DNA of 64,000 bases. Origin: a virus. The notes beneath the pieces were generated by a model that had not been told where the DNA came from, did not search any database, and was given only the letters and a program-made list of their open reading frames with translations. The DNA is taken from the IMG/VR virus record IMGVR_UViG_3300027777_000001, positions 10,080 through 74,079 of that record. The stretch is one strand, 5' to 3'. Made by a program: the position numbers and the translations under genes. Of the stretch, positions 2 through 48,793 are shown one piece after another. Numbering within the stretch: the first letter of the stretch is position 1; every line of letters begins with the position of its first letter.

Positions 2-3000
2 CCGTACTTCTTGGATTACTCAGTGTGGAAACAACACCGAGTCGGAATTGCGACGAATGGCTTTAACCCTAACTCGAGTAAAGCTCAGCGTCAACAGTCG
101 TACCAGCCTGATTGGGAAACCAAGATTGATAGGAATGACTCTGCACAAATGGATAATTTCTATTTGGGAGTTGCAGAGGGTTTTGGTATTGCAACAGACA
201 ATGTTCCAAATGCAGTAAGCCTCGTAACAATCAAAGATCGGTTTGCACAGGCCGATGTAGTAGAGGCGGTCGAGATATTGCGTCAACGTATGGTTAGTGT
301 TGATCCAGAACCGTTTACCGATGCTGAGCAACAGAAGATAGTTTCACTGGTTAAGAAAGGCAAAGAGAATCTTCATTCTCTGAATTCATTAATTGCTTTG
401 GCTCATTTCTCTGAAGCGGTTAAGACTAATTCAGATACATTCACGGTTCAGATCCCCGCAGAGCGTGATGGTAAGACGAATGGCCCAATGCTGGCTAATG
501 CCTTCTTTGGTGTGGGATCAAGCCCTGCAGAGCTCTTTAAGACCCTCAATCGTGGGGGATTCTTTGAAGTCGGTAATCCAGATACACAGTTCAATATCTG
601 GAAAGGTAAAGGCAATCTAGACCTGTACGAAAAAGGTACAGGGAATTTGCTTAGGACTCTTCAATGGTTGATCACAGAAAAGAAAGTCTTTGGTTTTATT
701 AAGGATACCGTTCAGGTATTCACCAAGAGTTTGACCGACCCTAAAACAGGGGGTGTCAATTCTGTCGGTCGAAACATGATGAAGAAGCCTACCCAAGAGG
801 TGGTCTATGGCTCGTCTTCTAAAACCACCGTGGATAACATGGCACAGGTTTTCATTGAAAGCGTCTACGCCCGTATCGAGGAAGTGGCTAAAGACGATCT
901 CTCTCACATGACGTTGGCTAAGTTGATCAAAGAATTAAACAGTCTTTTGTACGGAACAGACACAAAGTTTAACTCGAACGATACCGCACAAACAATCTTG
1001 GATAAAGACTTCAGTAGTGCGGATATAGCAGCAATGAAGGACAAGTTTATAAAGACTCTTGGCAAAGCAGTCAAAGAGACTGTGAAGAGTGACTTCCATG
1101 CATTCACATTTAGGACACAGATCTTTACAGCCACAGCTGGCTTGACCTTTTCAATCTATAAGGCAGTCTACGATACGGCTCGCAAAGACTACATCAAGGA
1201 GCTGACTGAGCTTGGGGAATTTGATGTTAATCCCGCCTTTGAACGTAGGGGTAAGAATGGGAAAATGTCTCAAATCTCTGCTAGGCAAACACACGATTTG
1301 AATGCTGCTCAGGAAAAGGTATTAAAAGAACGTGTCTTAGCAGTCTACCCAATCGTACATAGTTTGTTCTCTAAAGAAAGCAATCAACTAGAGGCAGGAT
1401 TGTTTATTAGTAAGACTGAAAGAAAGTTATCAAAAGATCCAAACTACCAAGTTGAAGTCCAATTTGGAACCCAAATTAAAGATTTGGGTAGATCCCGCGT
1501 CAACATGGCTGCAATGCAAACCAACCAAGTGGGCCCTGGTGTAGCAATGTTGCCTAACTTAATTCAGGCTTCAGATAGTTATATCTCGCATTCAGTACAG
1601 GCTGCGATGAATGCGCTTAACCAACATGATGCATTGATTACAGGGCTTGGAAAGACTAAAGAAACTGCACAGCTTCTTAATGCTGCTACGTGGAAACTGT
1701 TATTGAACTATTCCCCAGCCACAGAAATGTACGAGGCATTCGTACGTAACATTCTGGGTATGGAAAGTATGCTTGCCAAGAAGGAAGTCTCTAAAGATGT
1801 ACTAGCCCTCTTTGCTGCATCTATTGTCGAGCAGACTTACCGCTTTAATGGGCCAGATACGGATGTGCCAATTGATCCCCATGAGTTTCTAGGGATCCAT
1901 TTAGCCCTGATGAAGAATATGTCTTTTCGTGCTGACAGTATGAAGTTCTCTACTTTGGGTCTGACAGCATCAATTGACCAGTACACTTTTGAGGGTGGAA
2001 ACTTTGCAGTGGATGAGAAGTTACGAGAAGCGGCTCTAGCCAAGAAAGCTGAGCTGGTCTCTGAGATTGATCCTGAGACACAAGCTGCTGTTGATAGTCT
2101 TGAACAACGTCTCCAAACTGCGATCACTGCAGCAACAATCGCTGCGAATAAAAAGATTGCTCAGACTCTCAATATTGAACTCGATCCTGAAGGATATGGC
2201 GTAACTGAACAACAGTTGGAAGACCTGCGTACAGAGAGCCGAGAAGATGCAAGTATCAACGACACGGTTGCTGACCATTTAACTAACGCCCAAGCCTTTG
2301 CCTTACTCTCACACGCAGTCAAGGATAAGTCTTTGGGCGAGACTGTTGTTGAGATGCTTAAAGAGGTCATGACTAAGTTGCGAGAATCCAAGGGTGCCAT
2401 GAACTTGGTGACAGCCTTAAAGGTCTTACAGCCTGCTAACCGTGCAGAGATTGCTCAGTTACTCATGGATCGAGCCAGTAAGATTCCTGCTAACTTGTGG
2501 GGTATTCAAGGTACGCCAGACATTAAGAGTGAGGCTCACTGGGTAGACTTCTTTGAGAAACGGGGCAATGTTAAAGGCGAACAATTGGTTCGTGCTTTAA
2601 AAGATAGGTTGATTGAGCAAGGTGGCCCAAGTAACGTCAAAGACTTCAATTTGGAGATGCTTAACCGGATCAGTAAGTTGATTAGCCCAACGCTTACCAT
2701 TCGTTATGTCACGCCATTCACAGCACCTAGCCAAGTTATCCAGCAGGCCAAAGACAACGCACGGGCTTGGTACATTGCCACAACCGATGGTGTGGATACG
2801 ATCTACATTCTCTCTACAGACTTTAAACACTCTGGCTTAACCACGGAAACCCTCCTGCATGAGATTCTCCACAGTGCTGTAGCTCGAACCATTAAGTCTG
2901 AGCAAGATGCACGGAAAAGGAATCCAACCCGTAAGACTCCATTACTTGCCATCATCGATGACTTGGAGCTTCTTCGTTATTTGGCTAAGAAACATATCGA

Positions 3001-6000
3001 TGCTGACCCAGAGTTAGCCGCTAAATACGGGCCAGCAGTCAGTAGCATCGATGAGCTTATTGCTTGGGGAATGACAAACACAGCCTTCCAACAAGAAGTC
3101 TTAAACAAGATGCAAGGGGTTCCTTCTCGCACCAACAACAATGCAATCACTGGTTTAAAAGCCATGATTAATGCATTGGTCGCAATCCTGTTTAAGAAAA
3201 CAGAAGGTCGTGAGGCAGAGATTCTTGGTTCTGGTTTAAGTATCTTGATTACTAACGTGTCTGATTTATTTACTGAGGCCGAGAACAAGCAAAGCCAGAC
3301 CATTAACGAAACCCTGAATCGAAGCCAAACCCATACGGCTCCAGATCCAGCTTTCTATACCACCGCAGAGATATACGATTCCTTGGCAGGAGTCTCTCCC
3401 GCACCCCTAGCTTTTGATAGCCAGCTGCGAGACCTACTCAGCGGGATCGTCAATAAGCTGCATGGCACAGCGGGAGTCTTGCATGAATCCTTAATGGATC
3501 GTCAAGCCTTATCTGCTCAAGACGTATACCTCAAAGCACTGGCTACAGGACAAGCCCCCTTTGCATCAGCCACCATTGCCTCTGGCTTTCAGTTCAGCCA
3601 ACAGGAAGGGTTCGTCATCGAGCAGGTTGAGGCCACAGTCAGAGCAGCGATTGATCGTAATGAGAATACCCAGAGCTTTGCCTACAAAGGCTTGGATGCT
3701 CTGTACAACGAAGCCAAAGCGAACCTTGCGCCTAAGGACTTCCATCAGGGTGACTGGAACACAGCCACGCAGGTAGAGAAGGATACAGCCCAAGAGTTGT
3801 ATGACTTCTTATTTGTCATGGCTAAGGCTCTACCAAGCACCAACCCATCAACCGCAGGAAATACACATGCTAATTCAGATCGATTAGCCCATCTCAGCAG
3901 ATTCGCTGCAATGGGTCTTGCCCATGAAGGGGTTAATAAGCTCCTGCAGGGCATGACAGGATCTGGGCTGACTACCACGGCTACCCCTGCACCAACGAGC
4001 TTTCTAGCCCGTCTGAAGGCCTTGTTTGATCAGATCTTGGCTTGGTTCAGTGACAAGCAGACTGGAATCAAACCGGGTGACAAACCTGATGCCAGGTTAG
4101 AGAAATTAGTTGATACCTTGGTTGGGATTGAAGCTAAGAAACGTGCTGCAGCCATGGCTCGACAAAATGCTCTGTTCACAGGTCTACAGAATGTGTCCAA
4201 TAATGTTCTTAACGCGGCTAACACGGGTATCAATAAAGTAGGGGCAGCCGCCGCAAGAAGCAACAATGGGGCAGTGAAAGGCGTAGGGTTTGTGATTAAC
4301 GCGGTCTCTGGAGGTAGGGTTAACCAGATCATTAATAATGGCATGAACTACTACGCTACATTGAATGGTGGTAAGCCAGACCTCTTCACAGATACTGTGG
4401 CTTATGTGCGTGGGCCAACGTCTCAGATGGAGGAGTTGTTCCGTATGGGTAAGAAGCTAGAAGCGGATCGTCGAGCATTCATCGACAACACAGCTACGCT
4501 TCTCTTGGCTGCATATCGTAATGGTGGGCAGGATCTGACACAGATCCAGAAGAAAGCCATTACTTCCTTGGTACGTTCTGATGCCCAGTCACTCTTAGCA
4601 GCAGGCTACACCATGGCTCAGTTAGCTGAGTTCTTGGGCAACGGGACACAACGCCAAGACGAGATTACGAAGCTTGAAGATAGTCTGAAATCCTTACATC
4701 CCCAGTTCTATAAACAGTTCTTGGGTCAATCCAAGCAACTTGCATTCATCTTGGCTAATGGAAAAGCCACGCATGAGAACTCTATGCTGAACGCTTTGAA
4801 TATTGCACGGATGTACAACACACCCACAATGGGTCAGTTAACCGTAGCAGAAGAGGCTGCAGTCCAAGCCTTGGTAGATCCCTTGGTGTCTCTCTGGGCG
4901 ATTGAGTATTCACCCACAGTGCTTCGTGAGACATCCAGAGATGTGTTGCTCGATGAGTCAGCACGCTCCAATGGTGAGAACGGGATTGCCGCAACCCTTG
5001 CCATGCACGCACACTTACTCAAAGATTCAAAAGATAAGCTCTTTGATGGCAGCGAGGTATTGCGTACCAAGGGCTATTTACCAGAGGTATATAACCCAAG
5101 AACAGACATCCAAGTAGCAGGTGATGTCGAGGGTCGGAACTTAATTGACAAGGGCTACTCAGTGGGGGGTGTTTTGCCCAAAGATCCTAATGACCCCGAT
5201 CCTCAGACCGTAAAAAAATTGTATGTACGTGAGGACTCAGGGATGGTGGCTCATGTTACAGGGATGATTTCCTTGAAAGACATGAAAGCTAAAGGCTCTG
5301 CTCAGATTGGAAAAGAACGTAGGTTCTATAAACCTAAGGGAGATTGGAATGCCAGTGAAGTCGTAAGAGTCACTGGATCTCAAAGAAACGCCATTGCTTG
5401 GATGGCTCAAAATGGCGATACATTTGATCCACGAAACGTCACTGGGACGTTCATGATTCCTACACTAACAAGCGAAGGGGATATTTCTAACTATCGCTAT
5501 GAAATGAGCCATGCCCGTAAGGATTCAATCCTCGAGCGAAACAATAACTTTGAACACGTACTTGGGGTATTTGCTGGCAACACATTCGATAAGATTACCT
5601 CTGCCCAACATAACGCTAAGGTTATTCAAGCCTTGCATGACCACTACTCAGTGGACTATGCAGGACGGTCTGTGTCATACGTAGAAGTAGGCCCTAATAG
5701 CCGAGACCCAGCCATGCGGGAAGTCTACCGCTTGCTTCCTGAGGCCACAAAGAAGGAGATAAGAAGAGTGTGGGGAACGGAAGCCATGCTGGTTAGAAAC
5801 GACATGATGAATCTGACATTTGGGTATAGGAAATTTAGCCTGTCCGAGATGTTTGATAAAGACCCTTCTACAAGGAATGCTTATGAAGATCTGTTTGTCT
5901 CGATTGCTACCTTTGTCGTAGCAGGGTACGCTAGACTGCAACTTGGAATGGATCCAGCCCAAGCCATGCAGTATGCCAAGCGTACAGGGGTGATTGTTAA

Positions 6001-7159: not shown

Positions 7160-7498
7160 TTAACTACCGAATAAGCTGGTAGGTTTCACTGGAGGAGCAT
7201 CTACTTCTGCAGGTGCATCTAGTAGGCTCTCCGCCGAGACTGCATTGTTGAAAGTATCTTGAGCAGAAGTAATGCTTCCGACCACGGTACCAACAACACC
7301 AGTTTGTACTTCTTCACTAGTGAAAACAGGAAAATCACTTGCATCATCACTGATGCACAGATCAGCACTAATTCCATTCTCTTTCCTTCCTGAAGTGAAC
7401 ACGATTTCAACCGAGCGACCTTGCAGGTTAATACCCTGCTTGATCACATAGTCTTTGAGGGCTGTGATGATTTCAGTTTGGTTTAATTGAATTTGCAT
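7160..7498 (-). CDS. Hypothetical protein of N4-like phages
   Basis: MQIQLNQTEI start and SLFG end resemble genes at this position in N4-like genomes; tight operon spacing. Confidence 0.7.
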   Translation of the reverse strand: MQIQLNQTEIITALKDYVIKQGINLQGRSVEIVFTSGRKENGISADLCISDDASDFPVFTSEEVQTGVVGTVVGSITSAQDTFNNAVSAESLLDAPAEVDAPPVKPTSLFGS

Positions 7499-9973: not shown

Positions 9974-12157
9974 CTAGCGCTTGGAAAGCGCCTTCATGGT
10001 TGTCATCATGATGGTTCCGATGATCTCTGCTTCAGGTAACTTGTCAGGGATCTTGTCGTTCAGTGCCATCACTCGAGTGCGAATCTCTTCATGGTCATAG
10101 TTGTCATCGACCAAGATCAAAGCAAAACGCAGCAACATATTGTTACGATTCCCATCGCCAATGTTGTTGATGACCCAACGCTCCAAGTTATCCATGGATT
10201 GCTGAGAGTCGTATTTAGCCTTGTATTCCTCATTTCTTGAAGTCTTAGGAATGAAGGGCAGGGCATCTAACACTTCACCATCGTTGTACTCATAGCTCCC
10301 GTTATGGGCGAGCCACTTGCGAGAACGCTGGTTGGTGGCAGTGTCTACAGCGAACGGCAACCATTGGTAGATATGCGTCATAAAACTCTTATAGTCCTTA
10401 GCATCAAGGGCTAGTTTGTAGTTAATTGGCATAATGATTCTGAATCGGTTTTCCTGATCCGTGTGACGCTTGGTGGTATGGAGTAAGAATTTGTAATCCT
10501 TGAGAGTCTCCTTAGCGGCTTTTATACTGACGCTTCCTTCTACGTCTAAGACCACCAAGTTAAATCCTGGGATTGCATTCTCTTCATTCCTGTACCCACC
10601 CGTTAGATGGTGAGATACCCAATGCAAGCCTTGGTGTTGGGTCAACACATGGAGCTGATCAAAGGGTGCGTACTCTGCACAGTAATCAGTAGTGATATCT
10701 GTGGAGTAACCCACAACCATCTTATTAATATCAGTCTCTTTGAGAGTCTCGCCACGAAAGAACTCGATTCCATCAGAGATTGTTTTCTTGATGATGATGT
10801 TGTTCCGGTAGCCATGAGAAATAGCTAAGGACATCATCTCAGCTCTAGCAGGGGCTGTCCCTTTATAGAAGGGCAAGTCTTCCACTAAATCTGCTTGGGT
10901 TGCATCACAACGAATGTTGGCTAAATGCTTAGCCAGTTTCATATGATTACGATCCCGAGTGAGCATCTTGTTAAAGGCTTCACCAGATTCTTCAGCCAAC
11001 TTGATTGCGTTATGGATATGGTCTGGTGTGACCGAAGGAGATTCATCTACAAAGGCATAGGCTCCTGCAAGCTTTAAGACTTTGAAATAGCGATGATAAA
11101 GTTCATGGGCATGAGACTCTTGGTTGTCGCTGTACTCTGCAGATTCCCGTTCACATTTTTGCTTGTATTCAATCAACAAGATACTAGTCTCTCTCGAGAT
11201 AGTCAGGTTGCGATACATATGGATTGGATCAGCAAGGTTTTCAAATATCTCAGAAATTTGATCAATGAGTGCATCATTCGCTGGGCTAGTTTGACGATCG
11301 TAGACTTCCTCAGGCGTGAGTTGATTTTGTGAATCAATACGTGGCGAGGAGCCAAAGAAACACCGTCTTGCATAGCCTGTATCTAATAGTGAGACAAAGC
11401 CTTCCTCAGTCTTACCACCATCAAACAATCGATTAGGTACACCAAACAACAACATATTGGTAGGCGTACGATCTGCGATCTCTTCGTTCCGAGATTTGAC
11501 TGCTGTTTCTAAGCGCAACCTTGGATCCATTAAACCAAGGTCATAGAGCTCTAAGAAAGAGGCCATGGCTTCGGTTTCATTAAGAAGGTGCGAACCAATC
11601 TCATCAATCTGTAGATTGACTGAACCCGCTTTAGCCATTAACAAGATGTGACGCATCTGGTCAATACCTGCACCCGTTGCTTTGTTAAAGCTAAATAGAA
11701 ACTTACCGCAGGCTTTGTATTCAGCCTGTACTTTCAGAAGGGAATCGTCAAAATCAATTCCATCTCTTGCAGCACGATACAAAGCGAGCTTGTTAAGATT
11801 GGCTTCTGCTACTTGGGGTAGGGTTTTTTCTAAGAAGCGAGTTTTAAACTTACCCAAAATATCATTCTTCATAATATTGCAGGACTTGGTTTTCCCCGTA
11901 CCTGAGGGGCCAAGAGCTAAGGCAAACATACTGACGGGAAGATCTCCATTACCTTTGGTGGCAATGTTGATTCGCATCTGTGCTGCTGCCATACAGAAGA
12001 AATACCCAACAATGACTCGAAAGAATAATCGGTTTGGATTATCCGTCTTGTCGCATAGCAAGGTAACTAACTTCTCAGCCATGGGATGAAAGGTCATCTG
12101 ATCAGGCGGCAGTAACATCGGAATGCGTGGTGCTACAGGTGCAAGGTTAGGTAGCAT
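9974..12157 (-). CDS. DNA primase / Dns protein (N4 gp43-like)
   Basis: 727 aa, P-loop GPSGTGKT, C-terminal PriCT-like GNRNNMLLRFA; synteny. Confidence 0.85.
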   Translation of the reverse strand: MLPNLAPVAPRIPMLLPPDQMTFHPMAEKLVTLLCDKTDNPNRLFFRVIVGYFFCMAAAQMRINIATKGNGDLPVSMFALALGPSGTGKTKSCNIMKNDILGKFKTRFLEKTLPQVAEANLNKLALYRAARDGIDFDDSLLKVQAEYKACGKFLFSFNKATGAGIDQMRHILLMAKAGSVNLQIDEIGSHLLNETEAMASFLELYDLGLMDPRLRLETAVKSRNEEIADRTPTNMLLFGVPNRLFDGGKTEEGFVSLLDTGYARRCFFGSSPRIDSQNQLTPEEVYDRQTSPANDALIDQISEIFENLADPIHMYRNLTISRETSILLIEYKQKCERESAEYSDNQESHAHELYHRYFKVLKLAGAYAFVDESPSVTPDHIHNAIKLAEESGEAFNKMLTRDRNHMKLAKHLANIRCDATQADLVEDLPFYKGTAPARAEMMSLAISHGYRNNIIIKKTISDGIEFFRGETLKETDINKMVVGYSTDITTDYCAEYAPFDQLHVLTQHQGLHWVSHHLTGGYRNEENAIPGFNLVVLDVEGSVSIKAAKETLKDYKFLLHTTKRHTDQENRFRIIMPINYKLALDAKDYKSFMTHIYQWLPFAVDTATNQRSRKWLAHNGSYEYNDGEVLDALPFIPKTSRNEEYKAKYDSQQSMDNLERWVINNIGDGNRNNMLLRFALILVDDNYDHEEIRTRVMALNDKIPDKLPEAEIIGTIMMTTMKALSKR

Positions 12158-45584: not shown

Positions 45585-46411
45585 TTATGACAAGGCATAG
45601 TTCCCTAGCCTGATGTGTACGCCTAGGTCTTTACTCTTCTTCATCCACTTTCCCTTGTAGCCAGTGATCTGGGTAAGAACATCGGACAAGATCTCACTCT
45701 CGGCTAGATCAGCCATCACGTAGATGTACTGTTGACGAAGATGGTTCAGGTTATTAGGGTGACACTTGAACTCATCATGGATCGTCACTAGAGGGAAGGG
45801 TGCATACATCTGCATCTGGTCGATGAGAGTAGACAACTTCTCTAAGTGTGCTGTGGATAACTGATCCACAGTCTTGGTTGTTAGATGAGGCAGGATCACC
45901 ACATCAGCTAACTTGCTACGGTTGAACTGCTCGATGTAATACATTGTTTTACCTGACAAGGCAGGTGAGCTGAAGTTTGGATACATTCTTCGGACATCTA
46001 ATGTGTCCTTGATTAGAGCCTGAGCATTGCTGACAACTACTGGATCGTAGTTACAACGCCTGTGCATAGCCCGTAATACGTAACCATCGATGCTATGTAT
46101 ACAATTCGCCGCCAGTGATAATCCCTTCTTAGTCCCTACATTGTCATAGTAGGTATAGGTGAAGGTGGCATGATCTAACTCATCAACCTCGATGCGTGCA
46201 TCGATCTTGTCCATGACTTTGACCTTGGCATCATACCCATCGGGTAATTGCCAAGCGTGCTCCAAAGCCCATGGTTGCCATGATGCAAGCAGGTCTTGGA
46301 GAAGCTCCCAAGGCCCGGGTGCCACGATCTGAGCTGCCTGATAGAAGGCATCCAGTTCAGGACTATCCTCGCCAAATATGGCTTTGGGAGTCTTTTTACT
46401 ACCGTAGAAAG
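45585..46411 (-). CDS. RNA polymerase II large subunit (N4 gp16-like), exon 2
   Basis: (S)FYGSKK..., AN.IHSIDG, IHDEF motif C; in frame with exon 1 after splicing. Confidence 0.9.
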
Positions 46412-47247
46412 CAATGTGTTCAGGATAGTTCGTTAAGCTATCCCCGCTTTATTCAAGCTGCTATGTATTCCTACATAGATCAGACTATATCTTCACCCAT
46501 CACTGGGGTTCTGCGCTTCCACCCACTTGGGTGTACTCCCTTACGGGATAGTCGTTGCACCTTTTACAACAGCTTTACACATCTGGATAAATAGTTCTTC
46601 ATCCAAATCGCCTTTTGCTCTATTAACAGCCCATGCTACCCATTGAACATTACCCTGTGTGTACCCTAATTTAGGTTGCAGTTTGTCAATTGACAATCCA
46701 GCAGGGTGTTCTTTTTCAACGAATAGTGATTGGTTGGTGTATTTACACTTCCCATTTTGCTGTTTCCAGAGGTCAAGCATATATTCCATAGTGATATTAA
46801 ATGGGCGTTCGTTTCGTTTGTTGTTGGTTTTTGCTGAAGATATCCTCTGGCAAATAGCAGAAACTAACTTACGTTCGTCCCCTTTATATGGTGCAAATCG
46901 GCCTGTGCCATCGTAGCCTTTATGTTTAGCTCGCCATTCTCTAGCTTCTTTTGCTAGACACACACGACATTCTGGTTTGAAATCAGCAATGACGTTGGCG
47001 TTGAATTGTGAGCTGTTTTTACTTTTGGCGGGGCCGTATGCATTTAAAGGTTTAATTTCATTACAGATCCGACAGGTTTTCATCGTATTCCTATAGGTAA
47101 AGTCATAGAAGTATTTTACGATTATTTCTACGGAATAGCTATCATAACTTGGCTCAGGATTGTCCTTATTTTTCAATAGTGGGATGTTCCCTGAGTTCAC
47201 AGAATTGCGTATTTCTAGTTGCCTAGAAAGTGACCCCTTTTATTCTA
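46412..47247 (-). mobile_element. Group I intron (IA-like), 836 nt
   Basis: 5' exon ends in U paired with G in P1; terminal G; P aactcagggaac (47186-97), Q aatcctgagc (47152-61), R gtgcaacgacta (46549-60), S aagatatagtc (46483-93). Confidence 0.9.
46541..47083 (-). CDS. Intron-encoded homing endonuclease (HNH/His-Me-like)
   Basis: Start MKTCRIC with SD agga; CxxC pairs; SIDK....GY..GNVQWV...VN.AK. Confidence 0.8.
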   Translation of the reverse strand: MKTCRICNEIKPLNAYGPAKSKNSSQFNANVIADFKPECRVCLAKEAREWRAKHKGYDGTGRFAPYKGDERKLVSAICQRISSAKTNNKRNERPFNITMEYMLDLWKQQNGKCKYTNQSLFVEKEHPAGLSIDKLQPKLGYTQGNVQWVAWAVNRAKGDLDEELFIQMCKAVVKGATTIP

Positions 47248-47659
47248 AGGTCATTAGACACTTCTTGGCATCTGCTCGAGGGATTGTGATGTTGCTCCCC
47301 AAGATGGCATTCATCGTATCTGTGGTCAGGGTGTATGCGTCTGCTCGGACATTGGGGTTCGTTAAGCCCGTAGACGCAGCACCCGCAGGGCATCCTGTGA
47401 TAGCAGCCATGATCTGAATGCCTGAACATACAGCATCAAATCCAACCAAGTGTCCAGAGGGTTCCCCCCTCTGTGCTGCTCGGATAGCTTGGCAAGCCTT
47501 CATGTACAAAGGCTTCTTATCAGCCTGATCTACTAGGCTCTCTAAGATATCCAAGTTAGCCTCGGCCCATGTAATACGTTCCTCGAATAGAAGTTTGTCG
47601 ATACCGAATTGGTTTGCGACATCAATGAGTAAGTACTGCCAGCCTGTGAAGGTTTGCAT
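47248..47659 (-). CDS. RNA polymerase II large subunit (N4 gp16-like), exon 1
   Basis: MQTFTGWQYLLID.AN.FG.DK, motif A FDAVCSGIQ, first half of motif B RADAKKCLMT. Confidence 0.9.
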
Positions 47660-47669
47660 GATTAGACCT

Positions 47670-47888
47670 TTATGGGAATAGAATTGCCATGGCACGGATG
47701 TGCTTGGGTATGTTGTCGTGATTGGGTATCCACTGCCAATCGTATCCGCCGATACCTTTATCCATACAGAGGTACCAATTTTCTCCAAATTTCTTATATG
47801 TTCCTAAAATCCGTTCGGTACCCCAATCATCCCCATTGGGGAAGACTAGAACCTCACCGTTGGGACTGAAGTGATACTTTGATTTCAT
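47670..47888 (-). CDS. Small hypothetical protein between RNAPII subunit genes
   Basis: 72 aa, ATGA-coupled, SD ggag. Confidence 0.6.
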   Translation of the reverse strand: MKSKYHFSPNGEVLVFPNGDDWGTERILGTYKKFGENWYLCMDKGIGGYDWQWIPNHDNIPKHIRAMAILFP

Positions 47889-48793
47889 GTTGGAACTCCT
47901 GTAACAACCTCTTCATTGAAGAGCTCGATGCTTGCCTTCTTGAAGGGTGTGCCTTGGGTGTTGATGTGATAGCCGCAGGAATAGATACGGCCTCTCTTGT
48001 CAACCTTGTGGGTTAACCAGAACTTATTACCTTGGTTCACTAAGAGACTGTAGAAGCCATAAGACTGAGTCTTAAAGTCTTGCCATAGACTGATCTGCTC
48101 TTGGTTCTTGGCTACGAACGTAGGCTCCTCTTCAACACTAGATAAGAACTCAGTGTTGATCTTTAGAGGAACTTGGTTCATTAGATTCAGAACATCTAAG
48201 CAGATGTCTCCACCATGGTGATTACCTTGACCCAGTATCAATGAATCATTGTGGGTCAAGTAACCTGAGCTGTAGTTGCTAGTGAGCTCCAGTGGACTAC
48301 ACACCATGGGTGGTAAGTAGCTACTGTTACGCACAAAGTCTAGAGTCTGCTTGGTTAAGAAGATCCTAGACACCACTGTTAAGCTCGCTGTCCTACCTAC
48401 CTTACCAATGTCAAAGGCATCGGTTAAGCATAGTATGGCTAAGATCTCAGCGACTGTTGTGACTGCTTGTACTCGGTCACTGAACTTCAATCGACTCGCC
48501 ATCTGTGCTGCAACAGAAGACAACATCTCTTCTTTCTGGAAGTAACAGATACCTACGAAGATGTCTGTCACCAAGGTCTCGAAGTCTAGCCCTTCAAGCT
48601 GGGCTATCCTTCTATTCTTGGATTCATAGTAGGTACCTGCTGCATACTTCTCCAGAAGTTCTACACCTTCTTGTATCTTGGCTTGAGTATCAGGGTTGTC
48701 CCTGATGTCACCAGAGATATAACCGTCAATGAACTTACGGCTATATCTTTCCTCATTGGCTTCTTGCATGAAGATCTGCTTCAAAGTATCCAT
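47885..48793 (-). CDS. RNA polymerase II small subunit (N4 gp15-like)
   Basis: LPPMV..P, SGY, THKVDKRGRIY..GYH...QG (T/DxxGR motif). Confidence 0.92.
   Translation of the reverse strand: MDTLKQIFMQEANEERYSRKFIDGYISGDIRDNPDTQAKIQEGVELLEKYAAGTYYESKNRRIAQLEGLDFETLVTDIFVGICYFQKEEMLSSVAAQMASRLKFSDRVQAVTTVAEILAILCLTDAFDIGKVGRTASLTVVSRIFLTKQTLDFVRNSSYLPPMVCSPLELTSNYSSGYLTHNDSLILGQGNHHGGDICLDVLNLMNQVPLKINTEFLSSVEEEPTFVAKNQEQISLWQDFKTQSYGFYSLLVNQGNKFWLTHKVDKRGRIYSCGYHINTQGTPFKKASIELFNEEVVTGVPT

Follow-up and report, generated by a model that had tools for sequence, protein, structure and literature searches.

The stretch of DNA analysed here (the window) comprises 64,000 nucleotides (nt) of IMG/VR virus record IMGVR_UViG_3300027777_000001, positions 10,080 to 74,079. 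It covers most of the 74,079-bp record, which carries direct terminal repeats at its ends and represents a complete genome. The RNA polymerase genes of the phage share 45–54% amino acid identity with those of N4-like phages (Schitoviridae) in tblastn searches. On the minus strand of the window, the gene for the large subunit of RNA polymerase II (RNAPII, or RNAP2), the counterpart of N4 gp16, is interrupted by 836 nt that display the anatomy of a group I intron and harbor an open reading frame (ORF) of their own. An earlier annotation made from the letters of the window (the initial annotation) had proposed such an intron at this position. The interrupted gene is composed of the following elements:

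47248..47659, minus strand: exon 1 of the RNAPII large subunit (N4 gp16-like), 137 codons and the first base of a split Ser codon
46412..47247, minus strand: group I intron, 836 nt, IA2-like with P7.1 and P7.2, starting with UAGAAUAAAAGGGGUCA and ending with CACAUUG
46541..47083, minus strand: intron ORF in the P6 loop, 180 amino acids (543 nt), HNH-fold putative homing endonuclease
45585..46411, minus strand: exon 2, comprising the remaining two bases of the Ser codon followed by 274 codons and a stop

Both exons belong to the RNAPII large-subunit family. Exon 1 matches PF00940 (E 7.6e-12) and positions 1–139 of the 401-position phrog_2051 profile (E 1.9e-54), and exon 2 matches positions 141–401 of the same profile (E 4.6e-83); thus, exactly one residue is missing between the two matches. 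In tblastn searches, exon 1 is 53% identical to RNAP2 of LUZ7 and LIT1, and exon 2 is 48% identical to RNAP2 of Pseudomonas N4-like phages over 100% of the query. Exon 1 ends at 47248 with AAG TGT CTA ATG ACC T, which encodes R-A-D-A-K-K-C-L-M-T, and exon 2 begins at 46411 with CT TTC TAC GGT, which encodes (S)-F-Y-G-S-K. Removal of the 836 nt (47247..46412) generates a coding sequence (CDS) of 1239 nt that specifies 412 amino acids and contains a single, terminal stop. The predicted DNA joint is ATGACCT/CTTTCTAC, and the peptide across it, RADAKKCLMT-S-FYGSK (RADAKKCLMTSFYG), restores R-x3-K-x7-YG, which is motif B of T7-like polymerases. Within K-x-x-x-M-T-S-F-Y-G, it is the Ser codon that is interrupted, between its first and second bases. 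Motif C (VTIHDEF) is located within exon 2. The joined protein therefore has what is expected of an N4 RNAPII large subunit, namely motifs B and C, a length of ~400 amino acids, and an adjacent gp15-like partner. Splice boundaries moved by 1 nt were rejected, as they violate the rule of a U.G pair at the 5' splice site and a terminal G and alter the junction codon.

In the unspliced transcript, the exon 1 frame is closed by a UAA that lies two codons inside the intron. Exon 2 offers neither a start codon nor a ribosome-binding site ahead of the YG of motif B; its first in-frame start is a GTG at 46325, which lies 28 codons downstream, past that YG. Production of a functional subunit should therefore require splicing, as the initial annotation had proposed.

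We measured the gap between the two exon matches in the 80 best-matching IMG/VR RNAP2 loci, 79 of which were evaluable. The gap was exactly 3 nt in 78 of the 79; the sole insertion-bearing locus was that of Acinetobacter phage XC38. The intact RNAP2 gene of LUZ7 behaves in the same way in tblastn, with the exon 1 match ending at 7398 and the exon 2 match beginning at 7402, 3 nt apart. Alignment to intron-less gp16 homologues, which the initial annotation had suggested as a check, thus places one codon between the exon matches in 79 of 79 cases. The consensus over the site in these loci is K-x-A-x-M-T-S-F-Y-G-S-K. One intron-less IMG/VR locus carries precisely the sequence expected at the joint of the window gene after splicing, ATGACCT/CTTTCTACGG (site ATGACCTCTTTCTACGG). 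As judged from the joined CDS and these homologues, the boundaries given by the initial annotation (46412–47247) and the 412-amino-acid product are correct, the former to the base.

We were able to place every helix of a group I core from P1 to P10 and to check its base pairing. The elements are given below; all lie on the minus strand, and a window coordinate equals 47248 minus the intron position.

47253..47248 and 47236..47231 (intron 12–17): P1, exon UGACCU with guide GGGUCA, U.G at the 5' splice site (direct reading, pairing check, and minimum free energy (MFE) fold)
47240..47237 (intron 8–11) and 46411..46408: P10, AAAG just 5' of the guide with exon 2 CUUU
47212..47229 (intron 19–36): P2, hairpin UUUCUAG, GCAA loop, CUAGAAA
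47204..47198 and 46515..46509 (intron 44–50 and 733–739): P3, UUCUGUG with CGCAGAA
between the 5' strand of P3 and P4: J3/4, AAC
47194..47154 (intron 54–94): P4-P5-P5a with a GAAA tetraloop (Rfam model positions 60–138, RNAalifold, and MFE fold)
intron 95–97 and 687–689: P6, with P6' GGU at 46561..46559
46553..46548 and 46488..46483 (intron 695–700 and 760–765): P7, GACUAU with AUAGUC
46548..46537 (intron 700–711): P7.1, UCCC-GUAA-GGGA
46533..46520 (intron 715–728): P7.2, CACCC-AAGU-GGGUG
46507..46496 (intron 741–752): P8, followed by J8/7 ahead of P7'
46478..46461 (intron 770–787): P9 with a GGAA loop
46458..46446 (intron 790–802): P9.1
46443..46423 (intron 805–825): P9.2 with the conserved loop UUAACGAA
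ending at 46412 (intron 836): 3' tail UGAACACAUUG, closing with the terminal G

P4 pairs as UCAGG(G)/(U)CCUGA, and the stretch formed by J8/7 and P7 is conserved in the Rfam alignment (AAGAUAUAGUC). The U.G pair in P1, the terminal G, and P10, which are expected at the splice sites of group I introns, are all in place; P1, P2, P4, P7, the terminal G, and P10 had each been read correctly in the initial annotation. P7.1 and P7.2 lie between P7 and the 3' strand of P3, which is the architecture of classical phage IA2 introns, and it is on this architecture rather than on a dedicated subgroup classifier that the IA2 assignment rests. Folded as single sequences, the 5' domain recovers P1, P2, P4, and P5/P5a (z = -3.6) and the 3' domain recovers P7, P7.1, P9, P9.1, and P9.2 (z = -2.2).

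A search with a group I model, also suggested by the initial annotation, was partly successful. The whole window contains no Rfam match at the gathering threshold, which is 50 bits for RF00028. A permissive scan found both halves of the core on the minus strand, the 3' core at 46461–46684 (33.5 bits, E 1.8e-6) and the P4-P6 half at 47118–47194 (18.1 bits, E 0.075); when the phage's own record was searched, the 3' core scored 35.6 bits (E 5.9e-9) and the P4-P6 half had an E-value of 9.9e-4. The P7-P9.2 region is 70–78% identical at the nucleotide level to elements in ~500 phage records. The listed ones are situated at DNA polymerase genes (T7-like phages, PhAPEC5, and PhAPEC7), thymidylate synthase genes of T4-like phages, or HNH endonuclease genes. 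The match in Shigella phage B2 is a DNA polymerase intron; that in Pseudomonas phage CRC2 lies in a record without annotation.

The ORF within the P6 loop begins at a plausible ATG (47083) preceded by AGGA 7 nt upstream, and its stop at 46541 overlaps P7.1. The N-terminus of the encoded protein contains a zinc motif of four Cys residues. The protein matches phrog_1035 (E 3.8e-28), phrog_3322 (E 2.2e-23), and phrog_3118 (HNH, E 2.2e-11), and the annotations of the matched families are endonuclease VII, endonuclease, and HNH endonuclease. The ORF family also matches PHROGs annotated as 'decoy of host sigma70' and 'Srd anti-sigma factor' (E 1e-10 and 9e-9). No Pfam model, HNH included, and no NCBIfam model matches the protein, and a PDB sequence search with the endonuclease profile returned nothing useful. 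An AlphaFold2 model built with 35 homologues has a mean predicted local distance difference test (pLDDT) score of 88. Its top Foldseek matches are all HNH nucleases (PacI, the HNH domains of Cas9, and the Gme HNH nickase), with modest scores (E 4e-3 to 0.1, probability up to 1.0). The model, these matches, and phrog_3118 agree on the beta-beta-alpha-metal fold of HNH (His-Me finger) nucleases. Across the 35 homologues, 21 columns are invariant; the four Cys, S-x-D, N, and N-R-A-K-G are kept, with S131, D133, N145, and N154 among the invariant residues. Homologues P0002–P0014 are 61–75% identical. Free-standing homologues of the ORF occur as well, for example in Agrobacterium phage OLIVR1. A search for related loci with the endonuclease alone yielded only weak, partial matches.

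In tblastn searches, ORFs 39–41% identical to the intron ORF were found between N- and C-terminal RNAP2 fragments in Acinetobacter phage XC38, Achromobacter phages JWAlpha and JWDelta, Burkholderia phages HN02, HN04, and HN05, and Vibrio phage phi 1. Those in the RNAP2 introns of XC38, JWAlpha, HN04, phi 1, and the uncultured phage L097 are 37–43% identical to the window ORF. In GenBank, the loci of JWAlpha, phi 1, HN04, and XC38 are annotated as two RNAP2 CDSs and an 'endonuclease', with no intron called; for the C-terminal CDS of JWAlpha, HN04, and phi 1, the Met taken as the start is simply the one conserved in motif B. When the introns of XC38, JWAlpha, HN04, and phi 1 were removed according to the U.G and terminal-G rule, the predicted spliced products were clean, 404–415 amino acids long, and had motif B restored. 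The XC38 intron scores 38 bits with RF00028. XC38 shares both the insertion site and the P1 guide of the window, as does the uncultured phage L097/L098, which was found by a search with the P1 pattern. The counterpart in JWAlpha, HN04, and phi 1 lies 8 nt upstream of that site (GT/T ATG ACG) and has a different P1; the introns of JWAlpha and HN04 are without P2 and have a longer P7.1 region.

RNAalifold analysis of five homologous RNAP2 introns recovered P4, P5, P7, P7.2, P9, and P9.2. Both strands had changed in 12 of the 17 pairs predicted for the 5' half, where P4 and P5 show compensatory changes, and in 16 of the 28 predicted for the 3' half. P7 was invariant and P7.2 covaried. The sequences of P3, P7.2, P8, P9, and P9.2 vary while their pairing is kept in all five introns; for P9 and P9.2, both strands are altered in the majority of these introns. 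Compensatory changes occur in every lineage in P3, whose strands lie on either side of the ORF (UUCUGUG/CGCAGAA, CAUCGUG/CGCGAUG, CUUCGUG/CGCGAAG, and CUACGUG/UGCGUAG). P2 also covaries, being UAUCUAG/CUAGAUA in XC38 and another stem with a GUAA loop in L097. This covariation, together with phrog_2051 and PF00940, supports the initial proposal of a group I intron inside motif B of an RNAPII large-subunit gene.

Several observations were made on individual members of this group and on other interrupted RNAP2 genes. L097 (IMGVR_UViG_3300011253_000949) and L098 represent an uncultured N4-like phage with a motif B intron at the window's site. L097 contains a second insertion, ~980 nt long, which separates residues 212 and 214 of exon 2 and falls within motif C (IHD). 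This insertion is also a group I intron; it scores 76 bits with RF00028, above the gathering threshold, and its core matches the model contiguously. A single RNAP2 gene thus carries two introns in two of its catalytic motifs. Spliced motif B of phi 1 reads KDPLMTHFYFS, with YF where the family has a near-invariant YG. An HNH endonuclease inside RNAP2 was reported for Pseudomonas phage ZC08 (KU356691) by Amgarten et al. 2017 (PMC5418858). In that phage (locus 24702–25715), the RNAP2 match runs unbroken through motif B and stops at VHD of motif C, the end of CDS ZC08_054; it is there that the HNH insertion lies, and a gene for an I-HmuI-like endonuclease is found further downstream of VHD. A two-piece tblastn match also made Pseudomonas phage PJNP053 (OR941788) a candidate for an RNAP2 intron. 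The candidate was ruled out, because the insert is an in-frame green fluorescent protein (GFP) domain: CDS 1108–3069 encodes a 653-amino-acid 'RNA polymerase' in which residues 203–390 match Pfam GFP (E 8.7e-9). The PJNP053 record, deposited as that of a natural isolate, presumably reflects either an engineered reporter phage or a chimeric assembly.

Lake samples contain the gene in both states. Contigs from lake DNA runs X4 (a 247-nt contig) and X2 link 46373 to 47303 with 93 letters between them. These letters are the 38 and 55 flanking exon bases, which identifies a related allele that is without exactly the 836 nt; because both are DNA runs, they show an intron-less allele and not splicing. 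Run X2 also holds the intron-bearing form with 100% identity over both exon-intron junctions. The sporadic distribution and the presence of an intron-less allele in the same habitat are the mark of a mobile selfish element. In addition, a 1405-nt contig (record 18 of run X4) matches the core on either side of the ORF, at 46512–46563 and about 47148–47165, with 14 letters (CCTAATTTCTTAGG, a small hairpin) in place of the intervening 584 nt. It looks like an ORF-less relative of the window intron; its flanks differ, so that it probably resides in another gene or phage.

An intron in motif B of g16 is not new in kind. The coliphages N4G2 and Sz33 (G7C-like, N4-like) carry a ~800-bp insertion with a homing-nuclease ORF in g16 that is spliced in vivo: reverse transcription PCR on Sz33-infected cells and sequencing revealed the junction, a recombinant protein had the spliced size, and the junction peptide QAVMTAFYGSEAK was detected by matrix-assisted laser desorption/ionization mass spectrometry (bioRxiv 10.1101/542787). 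That insertion gave no significant Rfam match (bioRxiv 10.1101/542787). It resembles the window intron in host gene, location in motif B, size, and possession of an endonuclease ORF, the likeness being at the level of the motif, as judged from the junction peptide. N4G2 and Sz33 are horse-gut coliphages whose intron was spliced experimentally, whereas the window belongs to an uncultured freshwater phage of another lineage known from sequence. The interruption of RNAP2 in JWAlpha and JWDelta has been described, and its functionality questioned, by Wittmann et al. 2014 (PMC3915230) and Chan et al. 2014 (PMC4193335). The split RNAP2 genes of XC38, JWAlpha, JWDelta, HN02, HN04, HN05, and phi 1 have a homologous core and ORF inside motif B, as in the window; XC38 uses the window's exact site and P1 guide, whereas JWAlpha, HN04, and phi 1 differ by the 8-nt upstream position. 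Precedent for splicing comes solely from the g16 intron of N4G2/Sz33.

Introns at other places in N4-like genomes are also on record, in td of pVa5, and others are suspected in the DNA polymerase gene, gp24, and gp43 of JA-1 and VCO139. In the jumbo phage PhiPA3 (Chimalliviridae), an RNA polymerase subunit gene contains an intron with a homing endonuclease that confers a competitive advantage over PhiKZ (PMC12908238). PhiPA3 and the window share an endonuclease-bearing intron in a phage RNA polymerase gene, and the PhiPA3 enzyme targets the intron-less allele of a co-infecting relative. The two differ in that the PhiPA3 polymerase is a multisubunit, beta/beta'-like enzyme, whereas that of the window is T7-like, and in that the competitive advantage has been shown for PhiPA3 but is conjectured for the window intron. 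The initial annotation had set the window against phage introns described mostly in nucleotide-metabolism, DNA polymerase, and some structural genes. This premise of novelty does not hold, given the spliced g16 intron of N4G2/Sz33 (bioRxiv 10.1101/542787), the split RNAP2 of JWAlpha/JWDelta noted in 2014 (PMC3915230), and the PhiPA3 polymerase intron (PMC12908238). The core of the window intron falls in the same family as the classical phage IA2 introns (T4 td with I-TevI, and the DNA polymerase introns of T7-like phages, PhAPEC5, and PhAPEC7), with which it also shares an ORF looped from a peripheral helix, insertion into an essential gene at a conserved catalytic motif, and homing as the probable way of life. 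Unlike those introns, which reside in DNA-metabolism genes, it resides in the gene of a single-subunit-type RNA polymerase, and its endonuclease is of a distinct HNH-fold family that has no Pfam model.

Some findings weigh against an active, mobile intron in the window. Both RF00028 matches lie below the gathering score (33.5 and 18.1 versus 50 bits), a shortfall that arises because the 543-nt ORF between the P6 strands breaks the model. Three helices are short, namely P5 (3 bp), P6 (3 bp), and P10 (4 bp). Splicing of the window intron was not observed, and no exon-exon joint occurs in the lake metatranscriptome X3, the sole RNA run that contains any of the stretch. X3 contigs are identical to 46471–46707 and 46791–47085 (intron and ORF) and none lie on the exons; their depth is 2–3 and DNA carry-over is possible, which renders this run neutral on splicing. 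Finally, the general-base His that is canonical in HNH enzymes is absent, and the 35 homologues have no invariant His; the position aligned to the D-H dyad of Cas9 is D-K in the window ORF and D-Q in JWAlpha and HN04. The protein thus has the HNH fold without the textbook catalytic dyad, and its nuclease activity, hence the current mobility of the intron, is uncertain. With these points taken into account, we assign a probability of about 0.9 to the reading that the element is a mobile, self-splicing phage IA2-like group I intron with an HNH-fold ORF in motif B of RNAPII.

The anatomy and the precedents suggest a model for its action. The RNAPII large-subunit gene would be transcribed early together with the gp15 homologue, and ribosomes on unspliced RNA would halt at the UAA two codons into the intron. 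The transcript would then fold such that P1 presents the U.G pair and an exogenous G attacks at 47248/47247; the terminal G (46412) and P10 would bring exon 2 into register for joining. The spliced mRNA would be translated into the 412-amino-acid subunit, which would pair with the gp15 homologue and transcribe the middle genes. The product of the intron ORF may cut or nick intron-less alleles of co-infecting relatives, with repair copying the intron in (homing). A location in motif B would suit such an element because the motif is conserved and imprecise loss of the intron would not be tolerated.

We considered whether the gene might instead be in pieces, with the insert an unspliced homing-endonuclease cassette and the halves translated separately. 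The g39 DNA polymerase insertion of coliphage 10Gb is indeed unspliced and leaves its gene in pieces (bioRxiv 10.1101/542787), the GenBank records of JWAlpha, phi 1, HN04, and XC38 depict two RNAP2 CDSs, and in N4-type RNAPII a T7-like enzyme is by nature already divided into gp15 and gp16 (PMC5418858). However, exon 2 lacks the start codon and ribosome-binding site that separate translation ahead of the motif B YG would require, the break separates the K from the YG within a single catalytic helix, an insert that is never spliced would have no use for a whole covarying core equipped with U.G, terminal G, and P10, and the g16 element of N4G2/Sz33 does splice. This arrangement is accordingly very improbable for the window. 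Even harder to credit is a decayed intron that neither splices nor homes, on a contig from a defective phage or within a pseudogene. The missing catalytic His and the sub-threshold Rfam score would fit decay, but all core helices and the J8/7-P7 sequence are intact, the ORF is open and, by its 21 invariant columns in 35 homologues, under conservation, and the genome is complete with terminal repeats and present in two separate runs.

The initial annotation had suggested that the intron acts as a regulatory gate. Here, splicing efficiency would be modulated, for example by the GTP level, translation, or a phage factor, and would time or throttle RNAPII and with it the switch from early to middle transcription. 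By gene structure, RNAPII activity does lie strictly downstream of splicing, and the in-frame stop near the 5' end of the intron (two codons in) would set up a coupling between translation and splicing of the kind described for the T4 td intron. Set against this are the 78 evaluable loci of the 80 best matches in IMG/VR that run the same programme without the intron (the carrier aside), the intron-less allele in the same lake samples, and homologous introns at two sites 8 nt apart with another in motif C, a pattern of opportunistic invasion. Nor was any riboswitch-like or protein-binding extra domain seen in the intron. We found no sign of regulated splicing in the sequence, and we consider the gate improbable. 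The window intron need not regulate anything; a selfish homing element, which may help in phage-phage competition, is the better fit to its patchy distribution, the several nearby sites, and the intron-less allele that occurs alongside it.

It is tempting to speculate further that the RNAPII gene of N4-like phages is a recurrent battlefield for intron-borne endonucleases, in which the intron would serve as a weapon of interference between co-infecting schitoviruses, as PhiPA3 uses its own against PhiKZ, and would do so by means of an atypical HNH-fold protein without the catalytic His. This view draws on the occurrence of one intron and ORF family at two motif B sites 8 nt apart, on the second intron type in motif C, and on the intron-plus and intron-minus alleles found together in one lake sample; it is doubtful at present and is offered tentatively.

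The genes that flank exon 1 on its 5' side are as follows:

47885..48793, minus strand: RNAPII small subunit (N4 gp15 / RNAP1-like), 302 amino acids, upstream partner gene; matches phrog_2166 'N4-like RNA polymerase' (E 8.1e-97)
47670–47888, minus strand: 72-codon ORF between the gp15-like gene and exon 1; no family match

The 72-codon ORF has neither a Pfam nor a PHROG match. A small, unrelated ORF likewise separates the gp15-like and gp16-like genes of LUZ7, phi 1, and XC38. DNA of the window phage was found in freshwater and lake metagenomes and in at least two metagenome runs. Considering this occurrence and the complete genome with its terminal repeats, gp16 of the phage is presumably functional. 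In a megablast search of the locus against phages, the match was limited to ~150 nt of the intron core, which indicates that the phage has no close cultured relative.

The window intron opens no new mechanism. It does expose a gap in detection, as phage introns that bear ORFs fall under the Rfam group I threshold, and it extends the known hosts of introns in RNA polymerase genes to a schitovirus from freshwater that is possibly temperate. The natural pair of intron-plus and intron-minus alleles in one habitat would be useful for studies of homing or competition. For annotation, the RNAP2 fragments and 'endonuclease' of the window phage, JWAlpha, JWDelta, phi 1, XC38, HN02, HN04, and HN05 are best described as one spliced gene and an intron ORF. 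Whether such split RNAP2 genes are functional has been asked since 2014 (PMC3915230, PMC4193335), and the intron reading suggests that they are.

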